Of a stretch of DNA of 24,000 bases, positions 3,177-24,000 are shown piece by piece. Under the pieces are notes generated by a model. It did not search any database. It was given only the letters and a program-made list of their open reading frames with translations, and was not told the DNA's origin. Source of the stretch: Rhodocyclaceae bacterium (lineage in GTDB: Bacteria; Pseudomonadota; Gammaproteobacteria; Burkholderiales; Rhodocyclaceae); contig JBNKCS010000003.1 of assembly GCA_050287865.1 (NCBI GenBank), forward strand, positions 1,711-25,710, read 5' to 3'. Each line of letters opens with the position of its first letter. Within the stretch, counting starts at the first letter, position 1. Made by a program: the position numbers and the translations under genes.

Positions 3177-3646
3177 TAGATTCGTTGCCGGATGTGATCC
3201 ACCAGTCCCTCGCACGCGTCCTCGATCATGTCCAGCACGCGTTCGAAACCGGCCGGACCGCCGTAATAAGGGTCCGGTACCTCGTCCTCCTGGGTATGCC
3301 GAGCGTAGTCGAGCAGCAATCCAAGCCGGTGCTGCTCCTCTTCCGGACACGCGTCGCGCAGCATGGCGAGATTGTCGCGATCCATGGCCAGTATCAGATC
3401 GAATCGCAAAAAGTCAGCCGTGGCGACACGCCGAGCCCGCAGTTTGCCCAACTCGTATCCGCGCTCGGCGGCCACTTTCCGGGAGCGGGGATCGGGAGGC
3501 TCCCCGACATGGTAGGCATGCGTTCCCGCCGAATCGATCTCCACTTCCTTGCTCAATCCGGCACGTTCGATTTGGGCGCGAAGCACGCCCTCGGCAGTCG
3601 GCGAACGACAGATATTGCCCATGCATACCACGAGTACTCTGAACAT
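3176..3646 (-). CDS. Low-molecular-weight protein-tyrosine phosphatase (arsenate-reductase/LMW-PTP fold)
   Basis: 156 aa from ATG at 3646 (MFRVLVVCMGNICRSPTAEG...). CX5R(S) P-loop CMGNICRS and D-loop VPDPYYG. AGAGGAA RBS. The longer 488-aa ORF in the track is an upstream extension antisense to the idh gene. Confidence 0.9.
   Translation of the reverse strand: MFRVLVVCMGNICRSPTAEGVLRAQIERAGLSKEVEIDSAGTHAYHVGEPPDPRSRKVAAERGYELGKLRARRVATADFLRFDLILAMDRDNLAMLRDACPEEEQHRLGLLLDYARHTQEDEVPDPYYGGPAGFERVLDMIEDACEGLVDHIRQRI
3410..3433 (-). repeat. Copy 1 of the 24-nt element (minus strand reads CGGCGTGTCGCCACGGCTGACTTT)
   Basis: Exact match to the consensus. Lies inside the phosphatase CDS in sense orientation, encoding RRVATADF. 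Shares an identical 23-mer (AGTCAGCCGTGGCGACACGCCGA) with copy 3. Confidence 0.85.
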
Positions 3647-3835
3647 GATTCCTCTAACAATCCGACGACTTTTCCGTGAAAACCCGACGCCAACGCTAGT
3701 TGCTACCGAATTCGGAATAGAATAGCAACCGATGATGTGGCGATCAGTACGAGTTATGCAACCGCGATGTTGCGCCGCCACACCGCTCAGACTTGGGCGG
3801 ACCAATAATAATCGACTGAAGCGGAGTCCCCAACA

Positions 3836-4873
3836 ATGAATGAACAGAAAGTCATTCCTGCGACACTGATTCCCGGCGATGGGATCGGTCCGGAAATCAC
3901 CGACGCAACCCTCATGGCACTCGATGCGCTTGGTGCTCCTTTTGAATGGGACCGTCAAACCGCCGGCGCAGCAGGCGTCGCGGCTTGCGGCGATCCACTG
4001 CCGTCCGCCTGTCTCGACAGCATCCGCCGGACCCGTTTGGCACTCAAGGGGCCGCTGGAAACACCGGTCGCCGGCGGCTATCGCTCCTCCAACGTCCGCC
4101 TGCGCGAGGAATTCAAGCTCTACGCCAACCTCCGCCCCGCGCGCACGATCGTTCCTGGCCGCTTCGACAACATCGATCTCGTCCTCGTGCGTGAAAACAA
4201 CGAAGGCCTCTATATGGGCTACGAGCATTTCATCCCGATCGACGGCGACCCGCATGCCGTCGGGATGGCCACGGGGATCAACACGCGCCAAGGCTGTCGC
4301 CGCATCTGCAAGTTCGCCTTCGAGTATGCCCTCGGACAAGGTCGCAAAAAAGTTACTGTCGTACACAAAGCCAACATCATGAAAGCGCTGACAGGTATCT
4401 TCCTGGAAACGGCGCGACAGATTTATGCCGAAGAGTACAAGGACAAGTTCATTTTGGAGGAAGTCATCGTCGACGCCTGCGCGATGAAACTGGTCATGAA
4501 TCCCTGGCAATTCGACGTGCTGGTGACGACCAATCTGTTCGGCGACATCCTTTCCGACGAAATCGCCGGTCTGGTAGGTGGCCTCGGCATGACGCCGGGA
4601 GCAAACATCGGCGAGCAGGCGGCGATATTCGAAGCCGTACACGGCTCCGCGCCGGACATCGCCGGCAAGGGCATCGCCAACCCTATCGCGCTAATGCTGG
4701 CCGCCGCGATGATGCTCGACCACGTTGGCCGTCTCGACCTGGGCAACCGGCTGCGTAAAGCGATCGACGAAACCCTGAACGTCGATCAGTTGCGCACTGG
4801 AGATCTGGGCGGAAAAGCCTCGACCGGCGAGTTTGCCGCCGCGCTGGTCAAGAGAATACAGGCCGGAGCCTGA
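3836..4873 (+). CDS. Isocitrate dehydrogenase, short IDH3-like (probably NAD-dependent) member of the isocitrate/isopropylmalate dehydrogenase family
   Basis: 345 aa. Motifs GDGIGPEI, SSNVRLREEFKLYANLRP, VHKANIMK and NLFGDILSDE are family signatures. Size and motif pattern resemble ~340-aa NAD-IDH rather than LeuB. Cofactor and substrate specificity are inferred. Confidence 0.72.
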   Translation: MNEQKVIPATLIPGDGIGPEITDATLMALDALGAPFEWDRQTAGAAGVAACGDPLPSACLDSIRRTRLALKGPLETPVAGGYRSSNVRLREEFKLYANLRPARTIVPGRFDNIDLVLVRENNEGLYMGYEHFIPIDGDPHAVGMATGINTRQGCRRICKFAFEYALGQGRKKVTVVHKANIMKALTGIFLETARQIYAEEYKDKFILEEVIVDACAMKLVMNPWQFDVLVTTNLFGDILSDEIAGLVGGLGMTPGANIGEQAAIFEAVHGSAPDIAGKGIANPIALMLAAAMMLDHVGRLDLGNRLRKAIDETLNVDQLRTGDLGGKASTGEFAAALVKRIQAGA

Positions 4874-4885
4874 TTCCAGAGGGCG

Positions 4886-5533
4886 CTAACGCCCCGTCGC
4901 GGCGATTCTGGTTCTGATTAGGCTGGCAATTTCGCTGTTGCCAGCCTTTTCGGCCAGTTCAACCGCGGTATTCCCCCGCAGATCGCCAACGCGCGCGTTT
5001 GCGCCAGCGTCCAAGAGGATCTTCACGATCATCCGGTGTCCGTTCCGTGCGGCGAGCATCAAGGCGGTGTTGTGATTGGGCGCACGGGCATTTACCTTGG
5101 CGCCCCAGGCGATCAGATCTCGGGCAATTTCATCATGTCCATTAAAGGCAGCGTAGTGGAGTGCCGTCCAGCCCGGACCATCGACCGGAACACCCCAGTG
5201 GAGCAAGCGACGAACCGTCGACTGGCGCCCATTGAGCGCAGCCAAAGCCAAAGCCGTATCTCCATATCTATTCTGTTTCAGTGCGTTAGCGTGATTTGCT
5301 AACAAGAAGTCTAGAAGTTCGTCGTTGCCATTGGTTGCCGCCATCATGGTGAGCGTGGTACCGGAGTGGTCGGCCGTGTCGATGTCCACTCCACGCTGCA
5401 CAAGGTCCACGACGGCTGTCGTCCTGTCATTGAGAGCTGCCGCAACGACGTCCTCGTAAGCGCCCGCGTGCGCCGCTCCCGCGCACCACAAAACCGCCAG
5501 AACACCCAGCCGGAAAATCATCGTTTTGAACAT
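4886..5533 (-). CDS. Secreted ankyrin-repeat protein
   Basis: 215 aa from ATG at 5533. Sec-type signal peptide MFKTMIFRLGVLAVLWCAGAAHA/G. Several tandem ankyrin repeats follow (e.g. GWTALHYAAFNGHDEIARDLIAWGA, NTALMLAARNGHRMIVKILLDAGA). The start is 2 nt after the tatD stop. Confidence 0.85.
   Translation of the reverse strand: MFKTMIFRLGVLAVLWCAGAAHAGAYEDVVAAALNDRTTAVVDLVQRGVDIDTADHSGTTLTMMAATNGNDELLDFLLANHANALKQNRYGDTALALAALNGRQSTVRRLLHWGVPVDGPGWTALHYAAFNGHDEIARDLIAWGAKVNARAPNHNTALMLAARNGHRMIVKILLDAGANARVGDLRGNTAVELAEKAGNSEIASLIRTRIAATGR
4920..4951 (+). terminator. Rho-independent terminator for idh, embedded in the 3-prime end of the convergent ankyrin CDS
   Basis: GGCTGGCAA (4921-4929), 8-nt loop, TTGCCAGCC (4938-4946), then TTTT. 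It lies 48 nt downstream of the idh stop. Confidence 0.6.
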
Positions 5534-5535
5534 TT

Positions 5536-6306
5536 TCAGTTCAGAACGACCCCGAAAAGACGACAAAAGTTCGCGGTGGTAGCCTCGGCGACGGCTTCGA
5601 ACGAAATCGACCTCAACTCGGCAATGTGCTGCGCGACATAGCGGACATATCCGGGTTCGTTCAATTTCCCCCGATACGGGACCGGTGCCAGATAGGGAGC
5701 GTCGGTTTCTACCAGCAGTCGGTCCAGTGGAAGTTCGGCGGCAACCTTCTTGAGTTCGCTCGCGTTCTTGAAGGTCACAATCCCGGAAAAGGAGACATGA
5801 AAGCCAAGGTCGAGGGCTTTCCGGGCGGTCGCCATGTCCTCCGTAAAACAATGAAACACACCCCCGACTTCGCCCGCGCGCTCTTCCTCAAGAATGCGCA
5901 GCGTATCTTCCTTCGCTTCCCGAGTATGGACAATCAAGGGCTTGCCGGTGATTCTGGCGGCCTCGATATGAACCCGAAAGCGTTCGCGCTGCCATTCCAG
6001 ATCGCCTTCAAGCCGATAGTAATCGAGCCCGGTTTCTCCGATAGCCACTACCTTCGGATCTTCGGCCAGACGAACCAGCGTCGCTACATCGACTTTCGCT
6101 TCCTGAGCTGTATCCGGGTGAACACCCGCTGCTCCGTAAATGTTCGGGTGGGAATGGACTATCCTGAGCACTTCCGGAAAGCGATCCAGCGTCACCCCGG
6201 CGCACAGTGCGGCGCCGACGCCCGCCGCCGCCATGCGATCGAGAATATGCGGCAAATTGGCCGCCAGCTCCGGAAAATCCAGATGACAGTGTGAATCAAC
6301 CAGCAT
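5536..6306 (-). CDS. TatD-family metal-dependent hydrolase/DNase (YcfH-like)
   Basis: 256 aa. MLVDSHCHLDF HxH motif and full-length TatD pattern. Position downstream of holB matches the E. coli tmk-holB-ycfH order. Confidence 0.9.
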   Translation of the reverse strand: MLVDSHCHLDFPELAANLPHILDRMAAAGVGAALCAGVTLDRFPEVLRIVHSHPNIYGAAGVHPDTAQEAKVDVATLVRLAEDPKVVAIGETGLDYYRLEGDLEWQRERFRVHIEAARITGKPLIVHTREAKEDTLRILEEERAGEVGGVFHCFTEDMATARKALDLGFHVSFSGIVTFKNASELKKVAAELPLDRLLVETDAPYLAPVPYRGKLNEPGYVRYVAQHIAELRSISFEAVAEATTANFCRLFGVVLN

Positions 6307-6311
6307 GCGGT

Positions 6312-6686
6312 TCAGAGGGTGTGGGTGGCGCGAGAGGAACTCAAATGACCGCCCAGGATGCCCTCGATTTTCTGCTGCACCGCCAGTCCGCTTTCATCAT
6401 TGGCAAACTGCACGCCGATCCCCTGCGCCTTGTTGCCTTGGCTGCCTTCAGGCGTCATCCAAACAACGCTTCCCGCGATGGGCAAACGGGCAGGTTCGTC
6501 CATCAGTGTCAGCAGAATGAATACTTCGTCGCCAAAGGCGTATTCGCGCGTGGTCGGAATAAACAGCCCACCCCGTTTGAGGAACGGCATATAGGCCGAG
6601 TAGAGGGCCGATTTTGAATTGATATTCAAGGAGAGGACGCTGGGCTTCGCGCCAGCGCTCTTCGATGCGGGTGCCGAATCGCTCAT
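6312..6686 (-). CDS. pilZ: Type IV pilus assembly protein PilZ (PilZ-domain protein)
   Basis: 124 aa. LSLNINSKSALYSAYMPFLKRGGLFIPT...GDEVFILLTLMDEP...VVWMTPEGSQGNKAQGIGVQF closely follows the Pseudomonas aeruginosa PilZ pattern. Its start overlaps the holB stop as ATGA, as in the Pseudomonas tmk-holB-pilZ cluster. Confidence 0.85.
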   Translation of the reverse strand: MSDSAPASKSAGAKPSVLSLNINSKSALYSAYMPFLKRGGLFIPTTREYAFGDEVFILLTLMDEPARLPIAGSVVWMTPEGSQGNKAQGIGVQFANDESGLAVQQKIEGILGGHLSSSRATHTL

Positions 6687-7726
6687 ATTCGTTCGCTCGC
6701 CAATGCACGCAAGTAACGCTCGGCGATATCCTCGAAGAATAACTGCGGGTTCAACGGATGGGACGCCAGTGACCGAGCTTTCATCAGTTCATTGTAACAA
6801 CGTAACAGGGCTCCCGCAGAAGCGTGGCCCGCCAGTTGACGAAGCGCATCCGCTCCACCACCGAGACGCGTGCGACCGGCCAGCTTGAAAAGAAGCAGAT
6901 CGAAGACCCACTTCTGGACCGTCTCGACAAAGGCCTGCATCGACAGTCCCCCATCGCTTTTCGGCTGCAATTGGGTCTGCCACCGCGCGGCCAATGCCAA
7001 AGGATCCCGGCCGGGATCCGCCAGGCTCGCCAGAACGCCGAGGTAAATCGAACCGCGTCCCGATTCGCTTGCCGCATGCGCCAGCAACGGTGCGTTACCA
7101 AGTAACGGCAGCAGCTTGATCGCCGTCTCGTCCCGTGTCTTGAGCCACGCCCGCGCTTCGCTTGACGAGGGACGGGGTAGCGGCAATTTCCGGCAGCGGC
7201 TCCGTATGGTCGGAAGAAGACGTCGCCAATGGCACGATATCAATATAAAATAAACACTTGACGGAGGTTCTTCGAGTATTTTAAGAAGAGCGTTCTGAGC
7301 CGGCTGATTCATGGCATCGGCGGGTTCCACGACGACCACGCGCGCACCGCTACGGTGTCCTCCGATAAAGACGAAGTCCTCCAAGGCCCGAATCTGGTCA
7401 ATCAAAATCTGCCGACTACCCGGCTTCTTGCGCTCCCCCTCCGAAGCCGTGCCTTCTATATCGACGTCGGCTTCGGGAATGACATGCCGAAAATCGGGAT
7501 GGTTGCCCGATGCAAACCAGCGGCAGGACGGACAGTTCCCACAGGCATCGCCCGAAGATGGCGTTTCGCACAAGAGCCGCGCCACCATCGCCATGGCGAA
7601 ACGACCCTTGCCTATTCCCTCCGAACCGGTAAGCAACAAGGCATGGGGCAAGCCGCCCTCGCCTGCCCAGAGCCGGCCCCATACGGGGTCGTGCCATTTA
7701 TATTGTTTTATATCAGATTGTTGCAA
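6683..7726 (-). CDS. holB: DNA polymerase III subunit delta-prime
   Basis: 347 aa. [12 protein letters not shown]-loop-like motif, CGNCPSCRW zinc module and [11 protein letters not shown] box. The start overlaps the tmk 3-prime end by 14 nt, so the exact start is somewhat uncertain. Confidence 0.85.
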
Positions 7727-9420: not shown

Positions 9421-10440
9421 ATGAGCCTGACCCGCTGGACCGAATTTCTTGCTGCCCATCATCTGACGCCTGACGGCGAGAGCTTTGGCGACCTGACCGG
9501 CGAGCTCGCCGCCGCGCGGGAAGATGCCGTGCTGGCCCCGCTGACCGACTACGCAGTGATTCGCGCCCGTGGCGAAGACGCCGCCGAGTTCCTGCACAAC
9601 CTGCTCAGCAACGACATCAAGAACCTTCCGGCCGATGGCGTCCGGTTCGCCGGTCTTTGCACCCCGAAAGGCAGGCTGCTGGCGACATTTCACATCTGGC
9701 ACGACGGCCCGGACATCCTGCTTGCCCTTTCCGCGGACATCCAGCCGGCGATCCTGAAGCGCTTGTCGATGTACATCCTGCGCAGCAAGGTCACACTGAC
9801 CGACGCGAACCTTGCGCTCATCGGCCTGGCGGGACCGCAGGCAAAAGCCGTGGCGAGTGAGGCTTTCGGACACGCGCCTGAGACTATGAACGTCACCGAG
9901 GTTCCGGGTGGACAACTGCTCGGGCTGACCGGTCAACGCTACCTCCTTGCCCTGGCCCCGGAGGCCGCGATCGACGCTTGGCCAAAATTGACGGAGAAAG
10001 CCCGCCCAACAGGCGCCGCCACCTGGCGCTGGAGCGAGATCGCGGCCGGACAGCCGCGAGTCGTCCAGGCGACCCAGGAAGCCTTCGTGCCGCAGATGGT
10101 CAACATGGAGATTCCGGCCGTCGGCGGCGTCAGTTTCAACAAGGGCTGCTATCCAGGGCAGGAAATCGTCGCCCGCACGCAATATTTGGGCAAGGTGAAG
10201 CGCCGCATGTATCGGGCCAGGATGGATACCGCGCTGCCGCCGGGTACAGACGTCTTTACCCTGGAATCCGGCGACCAGCACTGCGGCGCCCTGGTGACTA
10301 CAGCTCCCTCCCCCGACGGCGGTTTCGAGTGCCTGGTGGTCGCCCAATCCTCTGGTGCCGAAGGCGCCGAGGTATTTGCGGGTGGCCCCGGCGTGCCGCC
10401 ACGGCTGACTTTGGGGACGCTGCCCTACACCCTCGACTGA
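9421..10440 (+). CDS. ygfZ: Folate-binding Fe-S cluster repair / tRNA-modification protein YgfZ (GcvT-like)
   Basis: 339 aa from ATG at 9421. Signature KGCYPGQE (NKGCYPGQEIVARTQYLGKVKRR) and GcvT-like N-terminal half. Confidence 0.85.
   Translation: MSLTRWTEFLAAHHLTPDGESFGDLTGELAAAREDAVLAPLTDYAVIRARGEDAAEFLHNLLSNDIKNLPADGVRFAGLCTPKGRLLATFHIWHDGPDILLALSADIQPAILKRLSMYILRSKVTLTDANLALIGLAGPQAKAVASEAFGHAPETMNVTEVPGGQLLGLTGQRYLLALAPEAAIDAWPKLTEKARPTGAATWRWSEIAAGQPRVVQATQEAFVPQMVNMEIPAVGGVSFNKGCYPGQEIVARTQYLGKVKRRMYRARMDTALPPGTDVFTLESGDQHCGALVTTAPSPDGGFECLVVAQSSGAEGAEVFAGGPGVPPRLTLGTLPYTLD
10389..10412 (+). repeat. Copy 2 of the 24-nt element (CGGCGTGCCGCCACGGCTGACTTT)
   Basis: Lies inside the ygfZ 3-prime end in sense orientation, in a different frame from copy 1; it encodes GVPPRLTL. 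Confidence 0.85.
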
Positions 10441-11210
10441 TGTGCCTGATTCTCGTCGCCTGGGAGGCGCACCCCGACTACCCGCTGGTGGTCGCCGCCA
10501 ACCGCGACGAGTTCTTCAGCCGCCCGACCGCCCCGGCCTCGTTTTGGGGCGACGGAGAGATATTGGCAGGGCGCGATTTGCAGAGTGGCGGCACGTGGAT
10601 GGGCGTGACCCGCTCCGGCCGCTTCGCGGCGCTGACCAACTTCCGCGACCCAGGCCTGCATAGTGAAAACCGGGCGTCCCGAGGCAAGCTGGTCGCCGGT
10701 TTCCTTGAAGCGGACGAAGCGCCGCTGACGTGGCTCGAACAGAGGCGTGCCGAAGCGGACCACTACAATCCGTTCAATCTTCTTGTCGGCGACCGAAGTT
10801 CGCTGGCTTGCTATTCGAGTGTCAGCCACGAACTGCTGCCCTTGGGTCCAGGCATCTACGGCCTGTCCAACCATTTGCTCGACACACCCTGGCCGAAAGT
10901 TCAGGCCGCGAAGTCGTCGCTCTCCCTGGCATTGGCCGCCCTGCCCGACACCGCGCCCCTGTTCGAACTGTTGCGCGACGATGCGATCCATGCCGACACG
11001 GCGCTGCCGCGCACCGGCGTCGGTCTGGAATGGGAACGGCTGCTGTCGGCGGCCTTCGTCAAGGCACCAGGCTATGGCACCCGCAGCTCGACGGTTCTGA
11101 TAGTCAGCCGTGGCGACACGCCGATATTCGACGAGCAGACCTGGCTCGAAGGGGGAATAGCGGGCGGCCGCAGCCGCTTCCGCTTCAAGCGGTCAAACGC
11201 CGCCTCATGA
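10440..11210 (+). CDS. NRDE-family protein (DUF833 / TANGO2-like)
   Basis: 256 aa. MCLILVAW...VVAANRDEF motif. The ATG overlaps the ygfZ TGA by 1 nt (cTGATGt). Confidence 0.8.
   Translation: MCLILVAWEAHPDYPLVVAANRDEFFSRPTAPASFWGDGEILAGRDLQSGGTWMGVTRSGRFAALTNFRDPGLHSENRASRGKLVAGFLEADEAPLTWLEQRRAEADHYNPFNLLVGDRSSLACYSSVSHELLPLGPGIYGLSNHLLDTPWPKVQAAKSSLSLALAALPDTAPLFELLRDDAIHADTALPRTGVGLEWERLLSAAFVKAPGYGTRSSTVLIVSRGDTPIFDEQTWLEGGIAGGRSRFRFKRSNAAS
11100..11123 (-). repeat. Copy 3 of the 24-nt element (minus strand reads CGGCGTGTCGCCACGGCTGACTAT)
   Basis: 23/24 match to the consensus; only the TTT tail differs. It lies inside the NRDE-family CDS in antisense orientation, where the plus strand encodes IVSRGDTP. 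Confidence 0.85.
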
Positions 11211-12081
11211 GGACGTGCGAAATTCCTGCCTCGACGAACTCCTCACCTTCCCGGATGAAGTCGAAACGCCGATAGAACGGTTCGGCCGATATCTGCGCAT
11301 GGAGGGCGACTTGCCCGATACTGCGCTGTCGCGCGGCTTCCATCAGGTGCAGCAAAAGCAAGGTGCCGACCCCTTTGCCGCGCCAGTCCTTCAGGACCGC
11401 CATACGTCCGATACGGCCGTCGGGCAGCAGGCGTCCGGTACCGATGGCGCGGCCATCTGGACCGCGCGCCACGGCATGATGACTGAGCGCATCCCAGCGA
11501 TCCCACTCCATTTCGACGGGAACCCCCTGCTCGCCGACAAAGACCGCATGGCGGATCGGCCCGGCCAACGGCCCCAGTTGCTCCCAATCGGCGTCCTCGA
11601 CACCAAATTCCACGATATCCACGGGCGTGTACGGCGGCACGAGATCGAAGAGTTCGACGATATCGCGGTTGCGCATGCGGATACAGCCGATCGAACCCGG
11701 ACGGCCCATTTCGACGATATCCGGACTGCCATGGATGTAGATATAGCGACGCATCGTATCGACCTGCCCCAGCCGGTTGATGCCCGGTTCGCACCCCGAC
11801 AACCAAAGAATCCGGGTCAATATCCAGTCGCGCCCCGGATGAGTCGCCGCGAGATCCGGCGACCATATCTCGCCGGTCGGCCGCCGCCGGACGAACACGG
11901 AATTCTCCGGCGCGCCCGCTCCAATCTTGGCGCGAACGACGTGCCGTCCGCGTGGTGTCCTGAAGCTGCCGTTGATTTCGCCCACACCATTGGCTGCAGT
12001 CGAGACTGGATATCGCCGTAAAAAAGTTGAATTATTATATAATTCAACTTGTTGAAACGGTATATTAATCCAGATTCTCAT
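11185..12081 (-). CDS. Fusion protein: N-terminal YkuD-type L,D-transpeptidase catalytic domain plus C-terminal GNAT N-acetyltransferase domain, no signal peptide
   Basis: 298 aa. YkuD signature YIYIHGSP...GSIGCIRMRNRDIVELF (His...Cys catalytic pair) in aa ~1-150. GNAT pattern RMAVLKDWRGKGVGTLLL...AQISAEPFYRRFDF...GISHVLM in aa ~155-298. The N-terminus MRIWINIPFQQVELYNN has no hydrophobic signal. The ATG directly abuts the tadA stop. Confidence 0.8.
   Translation of the reverse strand: MRIWINIPFQQVELYNNSTFLRRYPVSTAANGVGEINGSFRTPRGRHVVRAKIGAGAPENSVFVRRRPTGEIWSPDLAATHPGRDWILTRILWLSGCEPGINRLGQVDTMRRYIYIHGSPDIVEMGRPGSIGCIRMRNRDIVELFDLVPPYTPVDIVEFGVEDADWEQLGPLAGPIRHAVFVGEQGVPVEMEWDRWDALSHHAVARGPDGRAIGTGRLLPDGRIGRMAVLKDWRGKGVGTLLLLHLMEAARQRSIGQVALHAQISAEPFYRRFDFIREGEEFVEAGISHVLMRRRLTA
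12025..12049 (-). terminator. AT-rich perfect 11-bp inverted repeat with T6 tail (terminator-like or operator-like), inside the 5-prime end of the YkuD-GNAT ORF
   Basis: The minus strand reads AGTTGAATTAT-ata-ATAATTCAACT followed by TTTTTA, 33 nt downstream of the tadA stop. It sits in a ~55-nt AT-rich island within otherwise GC-rich DNA. Confidence 0.4.
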
Positions 12082-13111
<1,030 letters not shown>

Positions 13112-13137: not shown

Positions 13138-15915
13138 TTACTTGCCGGCATGCTTCAGTTGCGCCTGAGCCGCCGCCAACCGGGCAATCGGCACACGTGG
13201 GCCGGAGCACGAAACGTAGGTCAGTCCGATTTCGTGGCAGAACTCGATGGAAGCGGGGTGGCCGCCGTGTTCGCCGCAAATGCCGATCTTGAGTTCGGGG
13301 TTCGTTTCGCGTCCCAACCTGACCGCAATCTTCATGACTTCGCCAACACCCTTCTGATCGAGTACCTCAAACGGATTGTCCTGCAATATGCCGGTCTCGT
13401 TATACGCGGGTAAGAACTTGTTTTCCGCGTCTTCACGTGAGAATGAGAAAGTCGCCTGGGTCAGGTCATTGGTGCCGAACGAGAAAAACTCGGCCATTTT
13501 CGCCATGCGCCCGGCACGCATGCAGGCCCGGACCACTTCGAGCATGGAACCGAACTTGAACTGGACGTCGATACCCTGGGTCAGCTCGACAATCTTGTGG
13601 ATTCGGTCGACGTAACTCTTGATACGCTCCAGTTCCTCAACGGTCGCCACCTGCGGCACCATGATTTCCGGATTGACGGCGATACCTTCCCTGGCACACA
13701 AAGCGGCCGCTTCGAGAACCGCCTGGATCTGCATCGAGTAGATTTCCGGATAGGTGATACCGAGCCGGACGCCGCGATGGCCAAGCATCGGATTCACCTC
13801 CGCCATGGCGCGTACTTTGCGCAGCGTCTTTTCCTTCTTGACGATGACGTCGTCTTCGAGGTGCGACTCCTTGAAGACATCCAGCGCTTCGTTAAGGCGA
13901 CCCAGTCCGTCGGCGTACTTCTGATGCAGGGCTGGATTGAGGAGTTTGAGCGTTTCCGGCAGCTCCTCGATACCCTTGATGGTGTCCTTCAGGTGCCGCA
14001 GATGGGTAATTTCGAGTTCCAGTTGCGCCGCCGTCGGCAGGAATTCATGCATCGGCGGATCGAGCAGGCGCACCGTCACCGGCAAGCCCTTCATGGCCTT
14101 GAAGATACCCTTGAAATCGTTTCGCTGAATGGGCAGCAGGCGATCCAGCGCCGCCTGACGTTCTTCCAGCGATTCGGCGAGGATCATCTCCTGAACGATG
14201 GGCAGGCGGTCGGTGCTGTTGAACATGCGTTCGGTACGGCAAAGACCGATGCCCTTGGCGCCGAAAGCACGTGCCTTGGCGGCATCGGTCGGCGTATCGG
14301 CGTTGGCGCGGACTTCCAGGCGCGCGACTTCGTCGGCCCAGTCGAGCAACACATTCAGTTCAGGAGAAAACTCCGGCTCGACAGTCGGCACTTCGCCTGA
14401 ATAGACGTGACCGGTACCGCCGTCGATGGTCACGACATCGCCTTCGTGCAGCGTCGTATCGCCGATCGTCGCCTTGCGCATCACATCGTCGATATGAATG
14501 GCTTCGCAGCCGGAAACACAGGGCTTACCCATGCCGCGCGCAACGACCGCCGCATGCGAGGTCTTGCCGCCTCGGCTGGTGAGAATGCCTTGGGCCTGGA
14601 AGAAGCCATGGATGTCCTCGGGCTTGGTTTCCTCGCGAACCAGAATGATCTTTTCCCCGGCACGGCCGCGAATTTCGGCAGTGTCGGCATCGAAAACGAT
14701 ATGGCCCGACGCCGCGCCAGGCGATGCGGGCAGCCCCTGGGCGAGCGATTTACCCTTGAAACTGGGCGCCAGCTGCGGCACAAGCAATTGCTCGAGGACT
14801 GCCGGCTCGACCCGCAACAACGCCTTCTCGCGCGTAATGAGACCATCATTGGCCATTTCCACCGATGTACGCACCATCGCACGCGCATTCATCTTGCCGT
14901 TTCGCGTCTGCAGGCAATAGAGCTTGCCTTTCTCGATAGTGAACTCGAAGTCCTGAACTTCCTTGTAGTGGGACTCCAGGCGATTGTGCAACTCAATCAA
15001 CTGCGCGTAGATCTCCGGCATTTCGGCTGCCATGTCGGCGATCGGCTTTGGCGTACGAATGCCGGCGACGACATCCTCGCCTTGGGCATTGACCAGATAT
15101 TCACCATAAATCTGATTCTCGCCGGTACCCGGATTACGCGTAAATCCGACGCCGGTGCCGGAGTCGTTGCCCATGTTGCCGAAAACCATGGTGCAAACGT
15201 TGACCGCCGTGCCGTTGGCCATGGCCGGCGTGATCCTGAACTGCTTGCGATAGTCGATCGCGCGCTTGCCGTTCCACGAGCGGAAGACTGCCTTGAGCGA
15301 AATTTCCAGCTGTTCGTATGGATCCTGCGGAAACGGCTTCCCGGACTGGGCGAGCACAATGGCCAAAAATGCCTCAGTCAGTTCCTTGAGGTGCTCGGCC
15401 TTGAGATCCACGTCCTGACGGGCCGCATACTTGGTCTTGATCTCCGCCATCTTTTCGTCGAAATGCTCGTCCGAGATGTTCAGGGCGATTTTCCCGAAGA
15501 GCTGGATGAAACGCCGATAGGCATCCCAGGCAAAACGTTCGTTCTTGGTCTGCTTGATGAGTCCCTTGATCGACTCCTCATTCAGCCCCAGATTGAGGAT
15601 GGTATCCATCATGCCCGGCATCGACATCGCGGAGCCGGAACGAACCGAAACCAGCAGGGGGTTTTCGTTGGAGCCGAAACCCTTGCCCGTCTTCTTCTCA
15701 AGATCGGCCACGTACTGCTTGATGGTTTCCCAGAGCCCGTTGGGCAGGTTTCCTTTTTCGAGATAGGCAAGACAGGCCTCGGTACTGACCGTAAAACCGG
15801 GCGGGACCGCCAGGCCGATCTGGGTCATTTCGCAAAGATTAGCCCCCTTGCCACCCAGAAGCAGCTTGTTCTTGCCGTCACCTTCCTCGAAAGAAAACAC
15901 GTACTGCTTGACCAT
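13138..15915 (-). CDS. ppdK: Pyruvate, phosphate dikinase
   Basis: 925 aa. N-terminus GGKGANLCEMT. Catalytic-His motif TSRGGKTSHAAVVARGMG. PEP-utilising C-terminal domain (GLCRTERMF, GICGEHGGHP). Confidence 0.95.
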   Translation of the reverse strand: MVKQYVFSFEEGDGKNKLLLGGKGANLCEMTQIGLAVPPGFTVSTEACLAYLEKGNLPNGLWETIKQYVADLEKKTGKGFGSNENPLLVSVRSGSAMSMPGMMDTILNLGLNEESIKGLIKQTKNERFAWDAYRRFIQLFGKIALNISDEHFDEKMAEIKTKYAARQDVDLKAEHLKELTEAFLAIVLAQSGKPFPQDPYEQLEISLKAVFRSWNGKRAIDYRKQFRITPAMANGTAVNVCTMVFGNMGNDSGTGVGFTRNPGTGENQIYGEYLVNAQGEDVVAGIRTPKPIADMAAEMPEIYAQLIELHNRLESHYKEVQDFEFTIEKGKLYCLQTRNGKMNARAMVRTSVEMANDGLITREKALLRVEPAVLEQLLVPQLAPSFKGKSLAQGLPASPGAASGHIVFDADTAEIRGRAGEKIILVREETKPEDIHGFFQAQGILTSRGGKTSHAAVVARGMGKPCVSGCEAIHIDDVMRKATIGDTTLHEGDVVTIDGGTGHVYSGEVPTVEPEFSPELNVLLDWADEVARLEVRANADTPTDAAKARAFGAKGIGLCRTERMFNSTDRLPIVQEMILAESLEERQAALDRLLPIQRNDFKGIFKAMKGLPVTVRLLDPPMHEFLPTAAQLELEITHLRHLKDTIKGIEELPETLKLLNPALHQKYADGLGRLNEALDVFKESHLEDDVIVKKEKTLRKVRAMAEVNPMLGHRGVRLGITYPEIYSMQIQAVLEAAALCAREGIAVNPEIMVPQVATVEELERIKSYVDRIHKIVELTQGIDVQFKFGSMLEVVRACMRAGRMAKMAEFFSFGTNDLTQATFSFSREDAENKFLPAYNETGILQDNPFEVLDQKGVGEVMKIAVRLGRETNPELKIGICGEHGGHPASIEFCHEIGLTYVSCSGPRVPIARLAAAQAQLKHAGK

Positions 15916-16096
15916 GACCGCTCCCTCAGACTGTGTGAATTATCTTGAAAACATAGCAGAAACTCGGCCTTCCGGGTACTGCTCTTTGTCAAAAGAAGCG
16001 CCTTTGCCGGTACTCAGGCACGCCGATGGTGCTATGCCACTGAAGGAGTTAGTATTCGTCTTCCCCTTCAACAACTCGCGCAATCTTCCGACCGCC

Positions 16097-16645
16097 ATGA
16101 AATATCGCAAACCTGTACTGAGCTCCCTGCTGACCTCTTTCCTCGTATGCGGCATCGGCCTTGCCGGCTGCATGACCAACGAGAGCAAGCCCTCCGAACC
16201 GGCGCAACAAGCGCAGCCAGCGTCCAAGAAAGCCGAGGCACCTGCCCCGGTCGCGGCTGCGCCGATGGCAAATGGCCAATACGATCTTTCCCGCAACAAG
16301 CCTGTCACCGACTCGAGCACAGTCGAGGCCGGAAAGGGCACCCTGGTCAAGGGTATCAACGACTGGGAAGGTGAAATTTCCGGAATCCCGGCACGGGGAA
16401 GCAAGTTCACCAAGCTCAAGATCGGCATGTCAACCGACGAGGTTTTCCGTTTAATCGGGCAGCCGTCGGGCATGTCGAGCTACCCAACGGGCAAGGCACA
16501 CATTCCGTTCTACCACGGAGCCGATCGCTGGCGCCAAGAAGCAATCTACAAAGGCCAAGGCCGCCTGATTTTCTCCCAGCAAGGGGGGTGGGGTGCGTCG
16601 GAATTCAACCTGATCTGGATCATTCACAGCGCCAACGAGAAGTGA
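16097..16645 (+). CDS. Lipoprotein of unknown function (possible SmpA/OmlA-BamE-like C-terminal domain)
   Basis: 182 aa from ATG at 16097. Signal peptide plus lipobox LAGC. Low-complexity Ala/Pro/Gln linker. LKIGMSTDEVFRLIGQP resembles the SmpA/OmlA motif. The ORF-track start at 15848 is an upstream extension. Confidence 0.7.
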   Translation: MKYRKPVLSSLLTSFLVCGIGLAGCMTNESKPSEPAQQAQPASKKAEAPAPVAAAPMANGQYDLSRNKPVTDSSTVEAGKGTLVKGINDWEGEISGIPARGSKFTKLKIGMSTDEVFRLIGQPSGMSSYPTGKAHIPFYHGADRWRQEAIYKGQGRLIFSQQGGWGASEFNLIWIIHSANEK

Positions 16646-16669
16646 TTTAGCAAGCTGGGCTGCACCGCT

Positions 16670-16693
16670 CGGCGTATCGCCACGGCTGACTTT
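16670..16693 (+). repeat. Copy 4 of the 24-nt element (CGGCGTATCGCCACGGCTGACTTT)
   Basis: Intergenic. It starts 25 nt after the lipoprotein stop and ends 4 nt before a 10-bp GC hairpin. Confidence 0.85.
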
Positions 16694-16697
16694 CTGG

Positions 16698-16722
16698 CAG
16701 CGCCCGGCTCGACCGGGCGCTG
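16698..16722. terminator. GC-rich hairpin between the convergent lipoprotein gene and guaA (candidate terminator)
   Basis: CAGCGCCCGG (16698-16707), loop ctcga, CCGGGCGCTG (16713-16722). Only a weak T-run follows (gccgTTTa). Confidence 0.5.
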
Positions 16723-16727
16723 GCCGT

Positions 16728-18293
<1,566 letters not shown>

Positions 18294-18311
18294 GAGCTGC
18301 CTCAAATGCAG

Positions 18312-18335: not shown

Positions 18336-18350
18336 GGGTTGTGTCGTGGA

Positions 18351-19838
<1,488 letters not shown>

Positions 19839-19901
19839 TTATACGCAGGCTGGCGGATCGGTCGCAAAAGTGCTGCCGCCGCCCCGACATAAGGAGGTTC
19901 C

Positions 19902-20372
19902 ATGCGTCTCGCCGCCATTGCCGCGTTGCTCGTTTTGCCACTCGTCGCCAACGCCCAGGTCTATAGATGGAAGGATGCCAGCGGCAAGGTCCACTACTCC
20001 GACCAGCCGCCCGCCGAACGGAGTATCGGAAGCCAGCGCCTGGCGCCGCCGACGAGCTACAGCGACGACGTCGAAAAGGCGACCGCAACAACCGCCGACA
20101 AGCGCGAGGAAGCCGCGAAGCAGGCCAAGGAAGCGGCCGAGAAGAATGCCAAGGCGGAACAGGAACGTGCCGAGGAAGCCATCCGTCAAGAGAACTGCCA
20201 GCGCGCCCGACAAAACCTTGCCGGCATGGAGTCCGGACAGATACGTTTCCGCATGACCGCCAGCGGCGAACGTGAGGCACTCGATGGTGACGTGCGGGAA
20301 GCGGAGTTGGCCGACGCCCGTCGCGCGGTCGAAACCAATTGCAGCCCGCGACCGACCGCCGCCAAGAAATAA
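19902..20372 (+). CDS. DUF4124 domain-containing secreted protein
   Basis: 156 aa. Signal peptide MRLAAIAALLVLPLVANA/Q followed by the DUF4124 signature VYRWKDASGKVHYSDQPP. Charged coiled-coil-like middle region. AAGGAGG RBS. Confidence 0.8.
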   Translation: MRLAAIAALLVLPLVANAQVYRWKDASGKVHYSDQPPAERSIGSQRLAPPTSYSDDVEKATATTADKREEAAKQAKEAAEKNAKAEQERAEEAIRQENCQRARQNLAGMESGQIRFRMTASGEREALDGDVREAELADARRAVETNCSPRPTAAKK

Positions 20373-20379
20373 TCCAGCG

Positions 20380-20700
20380 TTATTCCTCGGCGGTCGCTCC
20401 GCCGCCCTTCTTCATCGTCTTTCCGTCGGCGGCGCGCTGCTTGCGGACCTCCTTGGGGTCGGCGATCAGCGGGCGATAGATTTCCACCCGATCGCGATCG
20501 CGCACAACCGTGTCCAGGCGGCTCAATTTGCCGTAGATGCCGACCTTGGCCTTGGCCAGATCGATTTCCGGATGGCGCTGCGGCAGTCCGGACGACTCGA
20601 TGGCCTGCTGGATCGTGCTTCCTTCCGGCAACTTCAAGGGAACAACGTCCTGCCGATCCGGCTTGGCATAGGTGACTTCGACTTGGATGGATTCAGCCAT
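20380..20700 (-). CDS. rnfH: RnfH-family ubiquitin-like protein (UPF0125, RatB/YfjF)
   Basis: 106 aa from ATG at 20700 (MAESIQVEVTYAKPDRQ...VGIYGK...DRVEIYRPL). It overlaps the ratA stop by 8 nt. Confidence 0.8.
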   Translation of the reverse strand: MAESIQVEVTYAKPDRQDVVPLKLPEGSTIQQAIESSGLPQRHPEIDLAKAKVGIYGKLSRLDTVVRDRDRVEIYRPLIADPKEVRKQRAADGKTMKKGGGATAEE

Positions 20701-21124
20701 AGACTTGTTGTGCCCTCTTGACGAACGATTCGACGAAGGTATCGGCAATGTGATGAAAAACCGGTCCCAGCGCCTTTTCGAGTATTTTGCTGGAAAACTC
20801 GTATTGCAGGCGAAATTCGACCTTGCAGGCGCTTTCGCCGAGCGGCGTGAATCGCCAGCCGCCCTCCATGCGCCGAAACGGCCCTTCGCGCAGCTCGATG
20901 TTCATCCAAAGCGGCGCCTGCTTGGCGTTCTCGGTGGCAAAATGCGCCTTGAGTCCGTGGTAGTTGATATGGATGCGCGCGGCGGTCTTGCCATCGGTGC
21001 GTTCCAGCAGTTCGGTACCACCGCACCACGGCAGGAACTCGGGATAGTCCTCGACGCGATCAACCAGATTGAACATCTGCGTCACTGTACGCTCGATCAG
21101 GACGGACTTTTCGACTGCGGCCAT
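20693..21124 (-). CDS. ratA: SRPBCC-family RatA/YfjG (COQ10-like, annotated as a type II toxin RatA)
   Basis: 143 aa. Polyketide-cyclase/SRPBCC pattern (MFNLVDRVEDYPEFLPWC...). Divergent from smpB as in E. coli. Confidence 0.85.
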   Translation of the reverse strand: MAAVEKSVLIERTVTQMFNLVDRVEDYPEFLPWCGGTELLERTDGKTAARIHINYHGLKAHFATENAKQAPLWMNIELREGPFRRMEGGWRFTPLGESACKVEFRLQYEFSSKILEKALGPVFHHIADTFVESFVKRAQQVYG

Positions 21125-21172
21125 GTCGCTTCGCTGGATTAGAATCCTTTGATTCTATCCCGCGTCCGTACC

Positions 21173-21622
21173 ATGAGCATCGTCGACAACAAGAAGGCCT
21201 TTCACGACTACTTCATCGAGGAGCGGTTCGAGGCCGGACTGACACTCGAAGGCTGGGAAGCCAAGTCGATCCGCGCCGGTCGGGCGCAGATCAAGGAGGC
21301 CTACGTCGTCGTCAAGGACGGCGAAATCTTCCTGATCGGCGCTCACATCAGCCCGCTTGCCCAAGCGTCGACGCATGTAAGCCACGACCCGGTTCGTACG
21401 CGCAAGCTGCTGCTGCATGCGCGCGAGATAAGCAAGCTGATCGGCAAGGTCGAACGCGCCGGTTACGCGCTGGTACCGCTCGACCTGCATTTCGCCAAGG
21501 GCCGGGTCAAGGTCGAAATCGGCCTGGCCAAAGGGAAGAAGCAATACGACAAGCGCGAAACCGAGAAACAGAAGGACTGGGTACGCGAAAAGGCTCGCAT
21601 GATGCGGTCCGCCGCCCGATAG
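21173..21622 (+). CDS. smpB: SsrA-binding protein SmpB
   Basis: 149 aa from ATG at 21173 ([17 protein letters not shown]...), full-length SmpB pattern. The TTG at 21149 in the ORF track is an unlikely extension. Confidence 0.93.
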
Positions 21623-21633
21623 CCTCTTGCAGG

Positions 21634-21657
21634 TGGCGTACCGCCACGGCTGACTTT
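21634..21657 (+). repeat. Copy 5 of the 24-nt element (TGGCGTACCGCCACGGCTGACTTT)
   Basis: Intergenic, starting 12 nt after the smpB stop. Its GGCTGAC segment pairs with GTCAGCC at 21662-21668. Confidence 0.85.
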
Positions 21658-21668
21658 TCGCGTCAGCC
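21648..21668. terminator. Weak 7-bp hairpin GGCTGAC-ttttcgc-GTCAGCC between convergent smpB and the SPFH gene
   Basis: Read directly from the sequence. The left arm is part of repeat copy 5 and the right arm overlaps the SPFH stop codon. There is no strong U-run on either strand. Confidence 0.35.
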
Positions 21669-22517
21669 CAGCTTGCCCAGCAGGCCGCGTACGGTTTCCT
21701 GAATATCCGCTGGCAGCAGGATCGTCTTGGCGTTTTGCGAATCAGCCAACTTGCTCATCGCGGTAATGTACTTCTCGCCGAGCATGTAACGCATCGGCGC
21801 CTCCTCCGTCCCGATGGCGGCAGTCACACGTTTGATAGCCTCGGCGCTTGCCGTTGCCAATGTAACGGCAGCATTGGCATCGCGCTGGGCCGATTCCAGC
21901 CGCGCTTCGGCCTGCAGGATCATCGACTGTTTTTCGCCCTCGGCCTGGGTCACCATGGCCTTGCGCTGACGCTCGGCTGCCGCCTGCATTTCCATGGCCT
22001 TCTGCATCGACGGCGACGGGTTAATATCCTGAATCTCGACCGATTTGACGGTCAGTCCCCAATCGATGGCTTCGTCGGAGATGCTTTCGCGCAGACGCGC
22101 CTTGATCTTGTCGCGGTTCGAGAGGGCCTCGTCGAGCTGCATTTCGCCGACGATGGACCGCAGCGTGGTCATGATCAGGTTGCGGATCGCCTCGGAAAAA
22201 TCGGTCACACCGTAGACCGCCTTGATCGGGTCGGTCACCTTGATGAAGGCGATGGCGTTGGTCAGGATCACCGCGTTGTCACGGGTAATGACCTCCTGCT
22301 CCTGCACATCGAGGATGATGTCCTTGGTGACAAGCTGATAAGCGACGCGATCAAGATAGGGAAGGATGATGTTAAGCCCAGGATGCAGCGTACTGTGGTA
22401 TTTGCCCAGACGCTCGACTATCCATTCCGTGCCCTGGGGAACGATGCGCACGCCCTTGAGCAGGGTGATAACGGCAAAAGCGATCAGCGCAACGACAACG
22501 ATAAAACCTTCGGTCAT
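21663..22517 (-). CDS. SPFH/band-7 (stomatin/paraslipin-like) membrane protein
   Basis: 284 aa. N-terminal TM helix, then an SPFH domain (GVRIVPQGTEWIVERLGKY...TRDNAVILTNAIAFIKV...) and an Ala/Gln-rich coiled coil. The start overlaps the NfeD stop (ATGA). Confidence 0.9.
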   Translation of the reverse strand: MTEGFIVVVALIAFAVITLLKGVRIVPQGTEWIVERLGKYHSTLHPGLNIILPYLDRVAYQLVTKDIILDVQEQEVITRDNAVILTNAIAFIKVTDPIKAVYGVTDFSEAIRNLIMTTLRSIVGEMQLDEALSNRDKIKARLRESISDEAIDWGLTVKSVEIQDINPSPSMQKAMEMQAAAERQRKAMVTQAEGEKQSMILQAEARLESAQRDANAAVTLATASAEAIKRVTAAIGTEEAPMRYMLGEKYITAMSKLADSQNAKTILLPADIQETVRGLLGKLG

Positions 22518-22957
22518 GACGTCCTCCCAACTTTCAGCAGACTGCCTTCAACTGCTATCACGCGAACCCGGTCACCCGCCCGGATCGCCTCGTCGGCGAT
22601 GCACGGCCAGGTATCCGTCCCCAGCAAGGGCTTCTGAAAACGCACTTCGCCCTTTTCGAATGGCGCCACATCGCGGGCCAGCAAGCCGATTTCACCGATC
22701 ATGGCAGGAGCCGACATGCCGATGCGCGTCTTGTGACGCTCCGGCCGGAATACCTTGAACCAGAGAAAGACCAGCACCAGTGAAACGACGAGCCAGACGC
22801 TCAACTGGGCAGTAACGCCGATGGCGGCCAACGCCACCACCAACGCAACGACCAAGGCGCCCAACCCGAACCAGACCAGCACGAAGGCCGGTACCGCCAG
22901 TTCGGCAAGGATCAGAACGATCCCCGCCACGGCCCAATGCCACCACTCCAGTTCCAT
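22514..22957 (-). CDS. NfeD-family membrane protein (YbbJ-like), partner of the SPFH protein
   Basis: 147 aa. Three predicted TM helices plus a C-terminal OB-fold-like soluble domain (GEVRFQKPLLGTDTWPCIADEAIRAGDRVRV). Canonical nfeD-SPFH operon arrangement. Confidence 0.85.
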   Translation of the reverse strand: MELEWWHWAVAGIVLILAELAVPAFVLVWFGLGALVVALVVALAAIGVTAQLSVWLVVSLVLVFLWFKVFRPERHKTRIGMSAPAMIGEIGLLARDVAPFEKGEVRFQKPLLGTDTWPCIADEAIRAGDRVRVIAVEGSLLKVGRTS

Positions 22958-22982
22958 GAGGCTGCCTCCCGAAACGGGTTGA

Positions 22983-24000
22983 TTATTTGTTGGCCAGTTT
23001 AAGCCAAGTATCCACCACTGTATCAGGGTTGAGGGAAATGCTCTGGATGCCTTGCTCCATCAGCCACTCGGCGAAATCGGCATGATCCGAGGGCCCCTGC
23101 CCGCAGATGCCGACATACTTCCCGAGCCGATTGGCGGTCGAAATCGCCATCGACAATAACTGCTTGACGGCGGGGTCGCGCTCGTCGAAGGCGTGCGCTA
23201 CCAACCCGGAGTCGCGATCGAGGCCAAGCGTCAGTTGCGTCAGATCGTTCGAGCCGATCGAGAAGCCGTCGAAGATTTCCAGAAACTGCTCCGCCAGCAG
23301 CGCGTTGGACGGAATCTCGCACATCATGATCAGGCGCAGTCCGTTCTCGCCCTGCTTGAGCCCATTTTCCGCCAACAAGTCGACAACGGCCCTGCCCTCT
23401 TCCAGATTGCGTACGAAGGGCACCATCAGTTCGACGTTGGTCAACCCGAGTTCGTTGCGCACCTTCTTCATGGCCCGGCATTCGAGTTCGAAGCAGTCGC
23501 GGAAGGAATGGGCGACATAGCGCGATGCACCGCGGAAACCCAACATCGGGTTTTCCTCCTCCGGCTCGAAAATGTCTCCGCCGAGCAACTTGCGGTACTC
23601 GTTCGACTTGAAATCGGACAGTCGCACGATCACGGGCTTCGGGTAGAACGCGGCGGCAATAGTGGCGACACCTTCGACCAGCTTCTCGACGAAGAAACCC
23701 TCCGGGCTGGCATAACCGCGCGCGCGACGGGAAATCTCGTCCCGCAGATTTTCCTTCATTTCGGAGAACTCGAGAATGGCTTTCGGGTGCACACCGATCA
23801 TGTTGTTGATGACAAACTCGACGCGCGCCAGGCCGACTCCGGCGTTCGGCGTCTGCGCAAACTCGAAGGCCAATTCGGGATTACCGACGTTCATCATGAC
23901 CTTCAAAGTCAGCGGTGGCAGCACGCCGACATCCTGGCTCGATATCTCATATTCGAGCGCACCGCGATAGACGTGGCCGGTATCGCCCTCGGCGCAACTG
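22983..24000 (-). CDS. ppsA: Phosphoenolpyruvate synthase, C-terminal part (5-prime end lies beyond the window)
   Basis: LKVMMNVGNPELAFEFAQTPNAGVGLARVEFVINNMIGVHP, GSNDLTQLTLGLDRDS and GICGQGPSD match the PpsA C-terminal PEP-utilising domain. The frame stays open to 24000 (CAEGDTGHVYRGALEYEISSQDVGV precedes the track M, which is an internal GTG). Confidence 0.93.
   Translation of the reverse strand, partial: SCAEGDTGHVYRGALEYEISSQDVGVLPPLTLKVMMNVGNPELAFEFAQTPNAGVGLARVEFVINNMIGVHPKAILEFSEMKENLRDEISRRARGYASPEGFFVEKLVEGVATIAAAFYPKPVIVRLSDFKSNEYRKLLGGDIFEPEEENPMLGFRGASRYVAHSFRDCFELECRAMKKVRNELGLTNVELMVPFVRNLEEGRAVVDLLAENGLKQGENGLRLIMMCEIPSNALLAEQFLEIFDGFSIGSNDLTQLTLGLDRDSGLVAHAFDERDPAVKQLLSMAISTANRLGKYVGICGQGPSDHADFAEWLMEQGIQSISLNPDTVVDTWLKLANK
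23905..23928 (-). repeat. Copy 6 (diverged, 21/24) of the 24-nt element (minus strand reads CGGCGTGCTGCCACCGCTGACTTT)
   Basis: Lies inside ppsA in sense orientation, in the same frame as copy 2. It encodes GVLPPLTL, versus GVPPRLTL in ygfZ. Confidence 0.55.

Follow-up and report, generated by a model that had tools for sequence, protein, structure and literature searches.

A clade-restricted 24-nucleotide word in uncultured Rhodocyclaceae as a candidate self tag of the DNA-uptake-sequence type

Only two families, both host-associated, are known to take up DNA in a sequence-specific manner. In the Neisseriaceae, the DNA uptake sequence (DUS) is 5'-AT-GCCGTCTGAA-3' plus a set of dialects, across which a CTG(A) core is invariant, and its receptor is the minor pilin ComP. 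The uptake signal sequence (USS) of the Pasteurellaceae is a motif of about 29 nt built around a 9-nt core, AAGTGCGGT or ACAAGCGGT. Neisserial DUS show enrichment in the core genome and are missing from genes of recent acquisition; they occupy permissive, mostly intergenic places, occur as inverted pairs, and are yet highly conserved (PMC2397512). Known uptake sequences favor one intragenic orientation and are placed near gene ends (PMC2346458). We analyzed a 24,000-nt stretch of the genome of a Rhodocyclaceae bacterium (assembly GCA_050287865.1, contig JBNKCS010000003.1, positions 1,711 to 25,710; henceforth referred to as the window) that contains six dispersed copies of a 24-nt word, CGGCGTGTCGCCACGGCTGACTTT (the 24-mer). 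We assign a probability of roughly 0.5 to the reading that this word serves its lineage as a self tag of the DUS type, spread over the whole genome. The analogy to DUS and USS had been drawn in an earlier note on this DNA, and of the readings considered it agrees best with all computational tests run. The grounds are over-representation in multiple genomes, restriction to one clade, tolerance in every frame that is free of stops, a preference for gene 3' ends, stronger conservation than in the flanks and absence from mobile DNA.

A search of the window that allowed three mismatches recovered all six copies described in the earlier note and no others, at the same coordinates and on the same strands. 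They carry 0, 1, 1, 1, 3 and 3 mismatches, and 100 shuffles of the sequence returned no match. The 13-mer CGCCACGGCTGAC was found five times against an expectation of 0.09, and four of the five extend to a 16-mer, as the note had reported. These counts rule out chance or codon bias as the source of the similarity. Copies 1 and 3 have the 23-mer AGTCAGCCGTGGCGACACGCCGA in common (3412-3434 and 11102-11124, element positions 0-22), again in agreement with the note, and differ within the 24-mer at position 23. An independent repeat finder returned the two strand families again, including this 23-mer, and a k-mer census identified the 24-mer as the sole over-represented word of the window. The 70 nt on each side of the six copies show no relation between copies, which excludes recent segmental duplication. 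The copies split 3:3 between the strands, though GC skew is negative throughout the window.

Both coding and intergenic DNA carry the word, as had been claimed. Copies 1, 2 and 6 are read in the sense direction of three unrelated genes, at two codon offsets. Copy 1, the exact consensus (3410..3433, minus strand), lies in a low-molecular-weight phosphotyrosine phosphatase (LMW-PTP) gene (about 3176-3640, minus) at codon offset 0 and encodes RRVATADF. Copy 2, CGGCGTGCCGCCACGGCTGACTTT (10389..10412, plus), lies in a YgfZ-like (GCV_T) gene at offset 2, where it encodes GVPPRLTL and ends 25 nt short of the stop codon. The degenerate copy 6, CGGCGTGCTGCCACCGCTGACTTT (23905..23928, minus; three mismatches), lies in ppsA, also at offset 2, and encodes GVLPPLTL immediately upstream of KVMMNVGNPE, a conserved motif in the ppsA product. 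Copy 3, CGGCGTGTCGCCACGGCTGACTAT (11100..11123, minus), runs antisense to a TANGO2-family gene (about 10440-11210, plus), where it is read as IVSRGDTP. The other two occupy convergent spacers: copy 4, CGGCGTATCGCCACGGCTGACTTT (16670..16693, plus), stands between an open reading frame (ORF) at 15848-16645 (plus) and guaA at 16728-18305 (minus), and copy 5, TGGCGTACCGCCACGGCTGACTTT (21634..21657, plus), lies in the 40-nt spacer between smpB (21149-21622, plus) and a Band_7 gene (21663-22517, minus).

We scanned the pattern GGCGTNNCGCCACGGCTGAC against 185,579 species genomes (596 billion bases) and obtained matches in at least 99 tiles of 8 kb. The tile statistics that follow are conditional, as each fetched tile holds at least one match, and the 212 copies studied are a minimum count. 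Among the matches listed, at least 10 metagenome-assembled genomes (MAGs) from independent studies contain many copies per genome, and many tiles have two or three copies. Nearly all of the listed tiles come from MAGs labeled Rhodocyclaceae, Rhodocyclales, Betaproteobacteria or Burkholderiales, with one labeled 'Gammaproteobacteria' (JAHJPX01). The presence of the word in independent Illumina and long-read MAGs, within conserved genes, rules out an assembly or adapter artefact. Single matches also turned up in unrelated taxa such as Vogesella, Nocardia and Luteimonas. With 2-5 mismatches at the unspecified positions, they fit chance matches, of which we estimated roughly 17 for this pattern over the 596 billion bases. 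Two contigs binned outside the family, L016 (3.4 kb, Steroidobacter) and L097 (511 bp, Anaerolineae), contain near-perfect copies with one mismatch and are probably mis-binned pieces of the Rhodocyclaceae clade.

The window lineage is an uncultured member of the Rhodocyclaceae near Denitratisoma. We base this placement on the guaB product, which shares 99% identity with its counterpart in the JAHJPX/JAHJNI MAG and 87-90% with its counterparts in Denitratisoma, Sulfurisoma and Candidatus Nitricoxidivorans. As an unbiased sample, we took about 21 kb around guaB from relatives, picked without regard to the 24-mer. The loci of the clade, which comprise about 79 kb of native DNA, contain 15 copies, a density of about 1 per 5 kb. 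Six of these copies are in the window, three in L100 (94% guaB identity), two in L103 (99%), two in L105 (91%; one of them weak) and two in L110 (92%). No copy was found in about 125 kb from the guaB loci of six related genomes (Denitratisoma sp. DHT3, Denitratisoma sp. agr-D3, D. oestradiolicum, Sulfurisoma sediminicola, Ca. Nitricoxidivorans and one Rhodocyclaceae metagenome contig), some of which are syntenic with the window. The 24-mer is limited to one clade near Denitratisoma, with a sharp phylogenetic boundary.

The placement of the 212 copies relative to genes was assessed with a local 3-periodic Markov classifier, which assigned all six window copies correctly and scored 89% of random positions as coding. 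Most copies (61%) are intragenic, and 39% are non-coding, compared with 11% of random 24-nt windows scored alike. The 36 classifiable non-coding copies comprise 20 in convergent spacers, 14 in tandem spacers (6 versus 8 by orientation) and two in divergent spacers, and a stop codon stands directly beside many copies. With two copies only in divergent spacers, a sigma-54 or other promoter is ruled out. Intragenic copies are sense in 51 cases and antisense in 79. They use the six frame/strand combinations 51, 32, 19, 17, 11 and 0 times; this order is the exact log-likelihood rank under the coding model, and the frame with no use is the one that reads TGA. A protein motif behind the DNA similarity is excluded by the use of five frame/strand combinations and by the intergenic copies.

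Both orientations are represented among the 212 copies (92 versus 120), and orientation is only weakly related to the GC skew of the tile (89 versus 63, a 58:42 split). The absence of strand polarity noted for the six copies survived this test. A polar motif of the Chi or KOPS (FtsK-orienting polar sequence) type is ruled out by this split and by the 3:3 distribution in a window of uniformly negative skew. Like Chi, KOPS and the cyanobacterial HIP1, the 24-mer is an over-represented, chromosome-specific word that is tolerated in genes. Chi and KOPS, however, are 5-8 nt long and strongly co-oriented with replication, and HIP1 is an 8-nt palindrome whereas the 24-mer is asymmetric.

Three inverted pairs were found among the 212 elements. 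At L099 5412-5449, two copies overlap head-to-head through a common GGCG..CGCC dyad and form a perfect 38-nt palindrome; the pair at L049 6578-6639 is tail-to-tail and folds at -34 kcal/mol; the third is at L030 3384-3437. The fold of the tail-to-tail pair, together with the enrichment just 3' of stop codons in convergent spacers, would suit an element that acts at the RNA level, as a terminator, a stability element in the 3' untranslated region or a target of a small RNA. We consider such a role extremely improbable, because the word is found in both orientations relative to transcription, within genes as well as in tandem spacers. In addition, 8 nt separate the hairpin from the T-run, and Rfam covariance models detected no family at the gathering score in the window. 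No canonical terminator was found beside copy 4 or copy 5. The former has a GC-rich hairpin without a T-run on its 3' side, and GGCTGAC in the latter is complementary to a GTCAGCC that contains the Band_7 stop codon. Of the statement that the word often sits at terminators, the part that concerns location is supported, as convergent gene ends are favored, but the terminator structures themselves are not, given three inverted pairs in 212 copies and the lack of a canonical terminator at both spacer copies.

An alignment of 200 copies showed that the limits of the unit are sharp, at 24 (perhaps 26) nt, and that the flanks are uninformative. The 24-mer is one unit and not two motifs, because the right half, ACGGCTGACTTT, almost always comes with the left half (present with ≤2 mismatches in 178 of 189). 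We assessed variability on the 93 copies outside the search pattern, since their bases were not forced by it. Mismatches are absent or nearly so at positions 3-5 (GCG), 17-22 (CTGACT) and 24, and the variable positions are 1, 6-10 and 12-16. The architecture is that of two practically invariant cores, GGCG and CTGACT-T, which stand 11 nt apart inside a weaker context. The commonest form in unconstrained DNA is about gg-TGGCGTAC-CGCCACGGCTGACTTT-t, and copy 5 has the T1/AC form, as is usual at unconstrained sites. Positions 7-8 had been said to fit a non-contacted spacer, but they are not neutral: AC/AT is preferred in JAHJPX and GC/GT in CAZRRI and JADJAS (chi-square p = 2e-6). At position 16, A is favored in L100, L105 and L110. 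These preferences look like lineage dialects, and candidate dialect variants in related MAGs may include CACGACTGACTTT, or A versus G at position 7.

The coding copies came by substitution and not by insertion of a 24-nt cassette. We draw this from the alignments of LMW-PTP with homologues in the Protein Data Bank and of PpsA with N. meningitidis PpsA (2ols), which show no gap across the residues encoded by copy 1 and copy 6, respectively, and which rule out an in-frame 24-nt insertion. A miniature inverted-repeat transposable element (MITE) or other mobile insertion is also ruled out, as the flanks are unrelated right outside the 24-26 nt. Repetitive extragenic palindromic (REP) elements, including the RAYT-associated REP/REPIN type, resemble the 24-mer in that they are short, number in the hundreds per genome, contain a small dyad and in part form inverted pairs. 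They are, however, extragenic, longer palindromes spread by insertion, whereas the 24-mer is mostly intragenic and substitutional. We therefore rejected this candidate on the basis of the 61% intragenic copies, the absence of indels, the three pairs in 212 and a dyad without compensation. The earlier exclusion of MITE and REP elements thus stands, and the word also proved not to be palindromic when this was tested.

The dyad deserves a separate account. The T1 form folds into a 6-bp mini-hairpin (-6.6 kcal/mol, z = -2.8), whereas the commoner C1 form lacks it, and variants at positions 9-12 are unmatched at 2-5 (likewise 9-13 against 1-5). We therefore read the GGCG/CGCC dyad as sequence, not structure, and the suggestion that it centres on a loop was not upheld. 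A hairpin TGGCG-TAC-CGCCA followed by a conserved single-stranded tail, CGGCTGACTTT, would be expected of the substrate of an HUH-type enzyme (REP/RAYT-like or relaxase-like). HUH substrates are laid out as a hairpin plus a 3' tail, and the T1 form matches this layout. The same substrate would have to be reconciled with the hairpin-free C1 form and the uncompensated arms, with rare REPIN-like paired arrangements, and with a word that is mostly intragenic and of indel-free origin where REPs are extragenic and spread by insertion. For these reasons, we regard an HUH substrate as very improbable.

Comparison of orthologous sites revealed conservation of the word above its surroundings. Copy 2 is matched at 23/24 positions in both L100 and L047, with flanks 75-82% identical, and copy 3 at 20/24 in L100 and 22/24 in L047. 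Across copies 2 and 3, which stand at the same codons in the two species, the elements are identical at 88/96 positions and the flanks at 74-82%. Copy 4 has orthologues at L100 13094-13117 and L110 19603-19626, and degenerate orthologues of copy 6 are present in L103 and L110. In the smpB/Band_7 spacer that holds copy 5, the word is on the same strand in L103, on the opposite strand in L105 and lacking in L110. The copies show long retention plus turnover, and orientation does not matter.

Substitutional origin and near-perfect copies, few of them degenerate, would fit a selfish word that spreads by biased gene conversion or repair (concerted evolution), with no receptor and no cellular function, and the lineage preferences at positions 7-8 suggest homogenization within genomes. 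We consider this explanation quite improbable. Tracts of 24 nt with unrelated flanks are far under the homology length for RecA-type conversion, and the known repair-driven words (VSP-type, HIP1-like) are 5-8 nt long. It would also leave the absence of the word from islands in the same cell unexplained.

That absence was observed in the inserted DNA within the clade loci. About 24 kb of such DNA contains no copy of the 24-mer, against about 4.6 expected (P about 0.01; the sample is small). The inserted DNA counted comprises a phage- or GTA-like (gene transfer agent-like) tail module in L100, an integrase and Trb/VirB conjugative element in L103, and a primase-helicase/HipA island in L110. The pattern had no match in the 2.9 million viral contigs of IMG/VR.

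The tail module (L100 1-9900) adjoins guaB on a 1.43-Mb metagenome contig, encodes DUF2460, Phage_BR0599, Phage-tail_3/Rcc01698_C, a GH19 lysozyme and a D12 adenine methyltransferase, and has no copy of the 24-mer. Islands lie immediately 3' of guaA in five relatives (L102 13381-14911, L103 13384-21461, L108 13382-14903, L109 13320-14850 and L110 13492-19313). Four of the five contain an integrase and AlpA, followed in L103 by the Trb/VirB conjugation genes, and the island of L110 contains the primase-helicase and HipA. No such island is present in the window (equivalent 16646-16727) or in L100. The 3' end of guaA is an integration hot spot in this family, because five relatives hold islands there.

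A chromosomal word that is absent from islands and phages and conserved at orthologous sites might also be a site array for a clade-specific DNA-binding protein, such as a nucleoid organizer or a self marker for repair, recombination or defence, kept by selection at each locus with no uptake bias. The site is long, asymmetric and rich in information, and with its two invariant cores separated by 11 nt it resembles the footprint of a two-domain protein or of a dimer plus arm. We nevertheless judge this explanation unlikely. No known nucleoid or segregation family has hundreds of asymmetric 24-nt copies that are mainly intragenic in tolerant frames, and in about 8 codons selection per site would have to be strong enough to override synonymous positions and also some that are non-synonymous. 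The flip of orientation and the turnover between presence and absence at the smpB/Band_7 spacer speak against a locus-specific role, and marked polarity of the Chi or KOPS kind was not seen.

The uptake-type self tag was compared with the two described systems. Like DUS, the 24-mer is strongly over-represented on both strands across the genomes of its lineage. It occurs in genes and especially at gene 3' ends, its intragenic copies are substitutional and in coding-tolerant frames, and it sits in permissive places. In the core genome its conservation is high and exceeds that of the flanks, and the small sample of acquired DNA contains no copy. These are features expected of an uptake sequence. 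Occasional inverted hairpin pairs, lineage dialects and a betaproteobacterial host are further likenesses to DUS, and CTGA in the 24-mer coincides with the CTG(A) core, which is a lead and not a test. The sequence is otherwise unrelated to DUS (6/10 identities at the best alignment), has 24 nt and two cores instead of 10-12 nt, and has a density of about 1 per 5 kb where DUS has about 1 per 1.1 kb. Terminator pairs are rare, and the hosts are free-living environmental bacteria and not host-associated ones. The few near-invariant core bases plus weaker flanking positions are reminiscent of the extended USS. Mostly intragenic placement, a coding-compatible bias of frame and orientation and a gene-end bias are shared with USS more generally (PMC2346458), but the 24-mer is GC-rich and unrelated in sequence, lacks AT-rich, helically phased flanks, is less dense and belongs to another phylum-level context. 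We rejected the Neisseriaceae DUS GCCGTCTGAA and its recognized 10-12 nt dialects as the identity of the word, since the CTGA core alone is shared and the unit is 24 nt, and the Pasteurellaceae USS core AAGTGCGGT or ACAAGCGGT with AT-rich flanks, since the logo bears no resemblance to it. Judged by its distribution, the word appears to behave like DUS and USS, but it belongs to neither sequence family.

Several points weigh against an uptake-type tag. A prepilin-motif scan of 720 kb of fetched DNA found no prepilin ORF, and no hunt for a ComP homologue was made. The sole pilus-related gene in the window is pilZ, which is consistent with type IV pili and no proof of them. Carriers of the word are known as uncultured MAGs, and natural competence is, to our knowledge, unreported in this group. 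With 22 specified bases, the 24-mer far exceeds both DUS (10-12 nt) and the USS core (9 nt) in length and information content, and at about 1 per 5 kb its density is 4-5 times below that of DUS/USS. Degenerate copies are few among the matches listed, and only three inverted terminator pairs occur among the 212 copies. The per-genome totals are lower bounds, and the tile statistics presuppose at least one match per tile. Full-text literature searches returned no report of uptake sequences in Rhodocyclaceae or of this sequence in the papers searchable, and the literature matches to the sequence itself were unrelated primers.

If the 24-mer is a self tag of the DUS type, a surface DNA receptor would prefer double-stranded DNA bearing the cores GGCG and CTGACTTT. 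Such a receptor would most plausibly be a minor pilin of a type IV pilus. Fragments from relatives that bear the word would be imported and recombined more often than others. Point mutations that make or improve a match would then spread by molecular drive wherever coding or regulatory constraint permits, and old copies would be kept. The analysis shows the distribution of the word, its conservation, its substitutional origin, its restriction to one clade and its absence from mobile DNA, whereas the uptake bias, the receptor and competence itself are inferences.

The genes of the window were assigned by Pfam scans. Their order is rne, LMW-PTP (minus), an Iso_dh gene (isocitrate/isopropylmalate-dehydrogenase family), an ankyrin-repeat protein, tatD, pilZ, holB, tmk, mltG, the YgfZ-like GCV_T gene, the TANGO2-family gene, a YkuD-GNAT fusion, tadA, a response regulator, pyruvate phosphate dikinase (PPDK), an unassigned ORF, guaA, guaB, a DUF4124 protein, two ORFs without a Pfam match at the place where relatives carry Polyketide_cyc2 and Ub-RnfH, smpB, Band_7, NfeD and ppsA. 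Two enzymes that use phosphoenolpyruvate (PEP), PPDK and PEP synthase, are thus encoded within 8 kb (13138-15915 and 22983-24000), and the PpsA regulator (Kinase-PPPase) adjoins ppsA in relatives. One ORF (11185-12081, minus) joins an L,D-transpeptidase (YkuD) to a GNAT acetyltransferase domain, a fusion also present in L100. The ankyrin-repeat protein (4886-5851, minus), beside tatD, pilZ and holB, is unusual for a free-living betaproteobacterium; its real start is probably farther downstream, as the listed ORF overlaps tatD. The compositional outlier of the window is the C-terminal half of RNase E (2001-3000; GC 0.67, AT skew +0.33), which is probably a low-complexity scaffold region.

Our tentative proposal is that uncultured free-living Rhodocyclaceae from wastewater, groundwater and saline biofilm may use an uptake sequence that is 24 nt long, is bipartite and has CTGA as a core. 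They would then be a third, independently recognizable lineage with sequence-specific transformation and the first beyond the host-associated Neisseriaceae and Pasteurellaceae. A minor pilin related to ComP might read the word, which would push DUS-type self-recognition deeper into the Betaproteobacteria. What sequence-specific uptake serves in evolution, be it repair, sex, food or a selfish word, continues to be debated. Its presence in a third lineage, one of environmental bacteria, would if true be an independent test of molecular-drive models, to which the longer bipartite signal and the dialects add material. The clade boundary, with the word present here and none in Denitratisoma, Sulfurisoma and Nitricoxidivorans, suits a search for the receptor by phyletic pattern, so that the receptor question is directly testable. 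Should the word mark self DNA for another machine, it would be a new kind of chromosomal signal. For the organisms themselves, the 24-mer is a highly specific marker for binning and for detecting the clade in metagenomes, and it could be a handle toward their genetic tractability.

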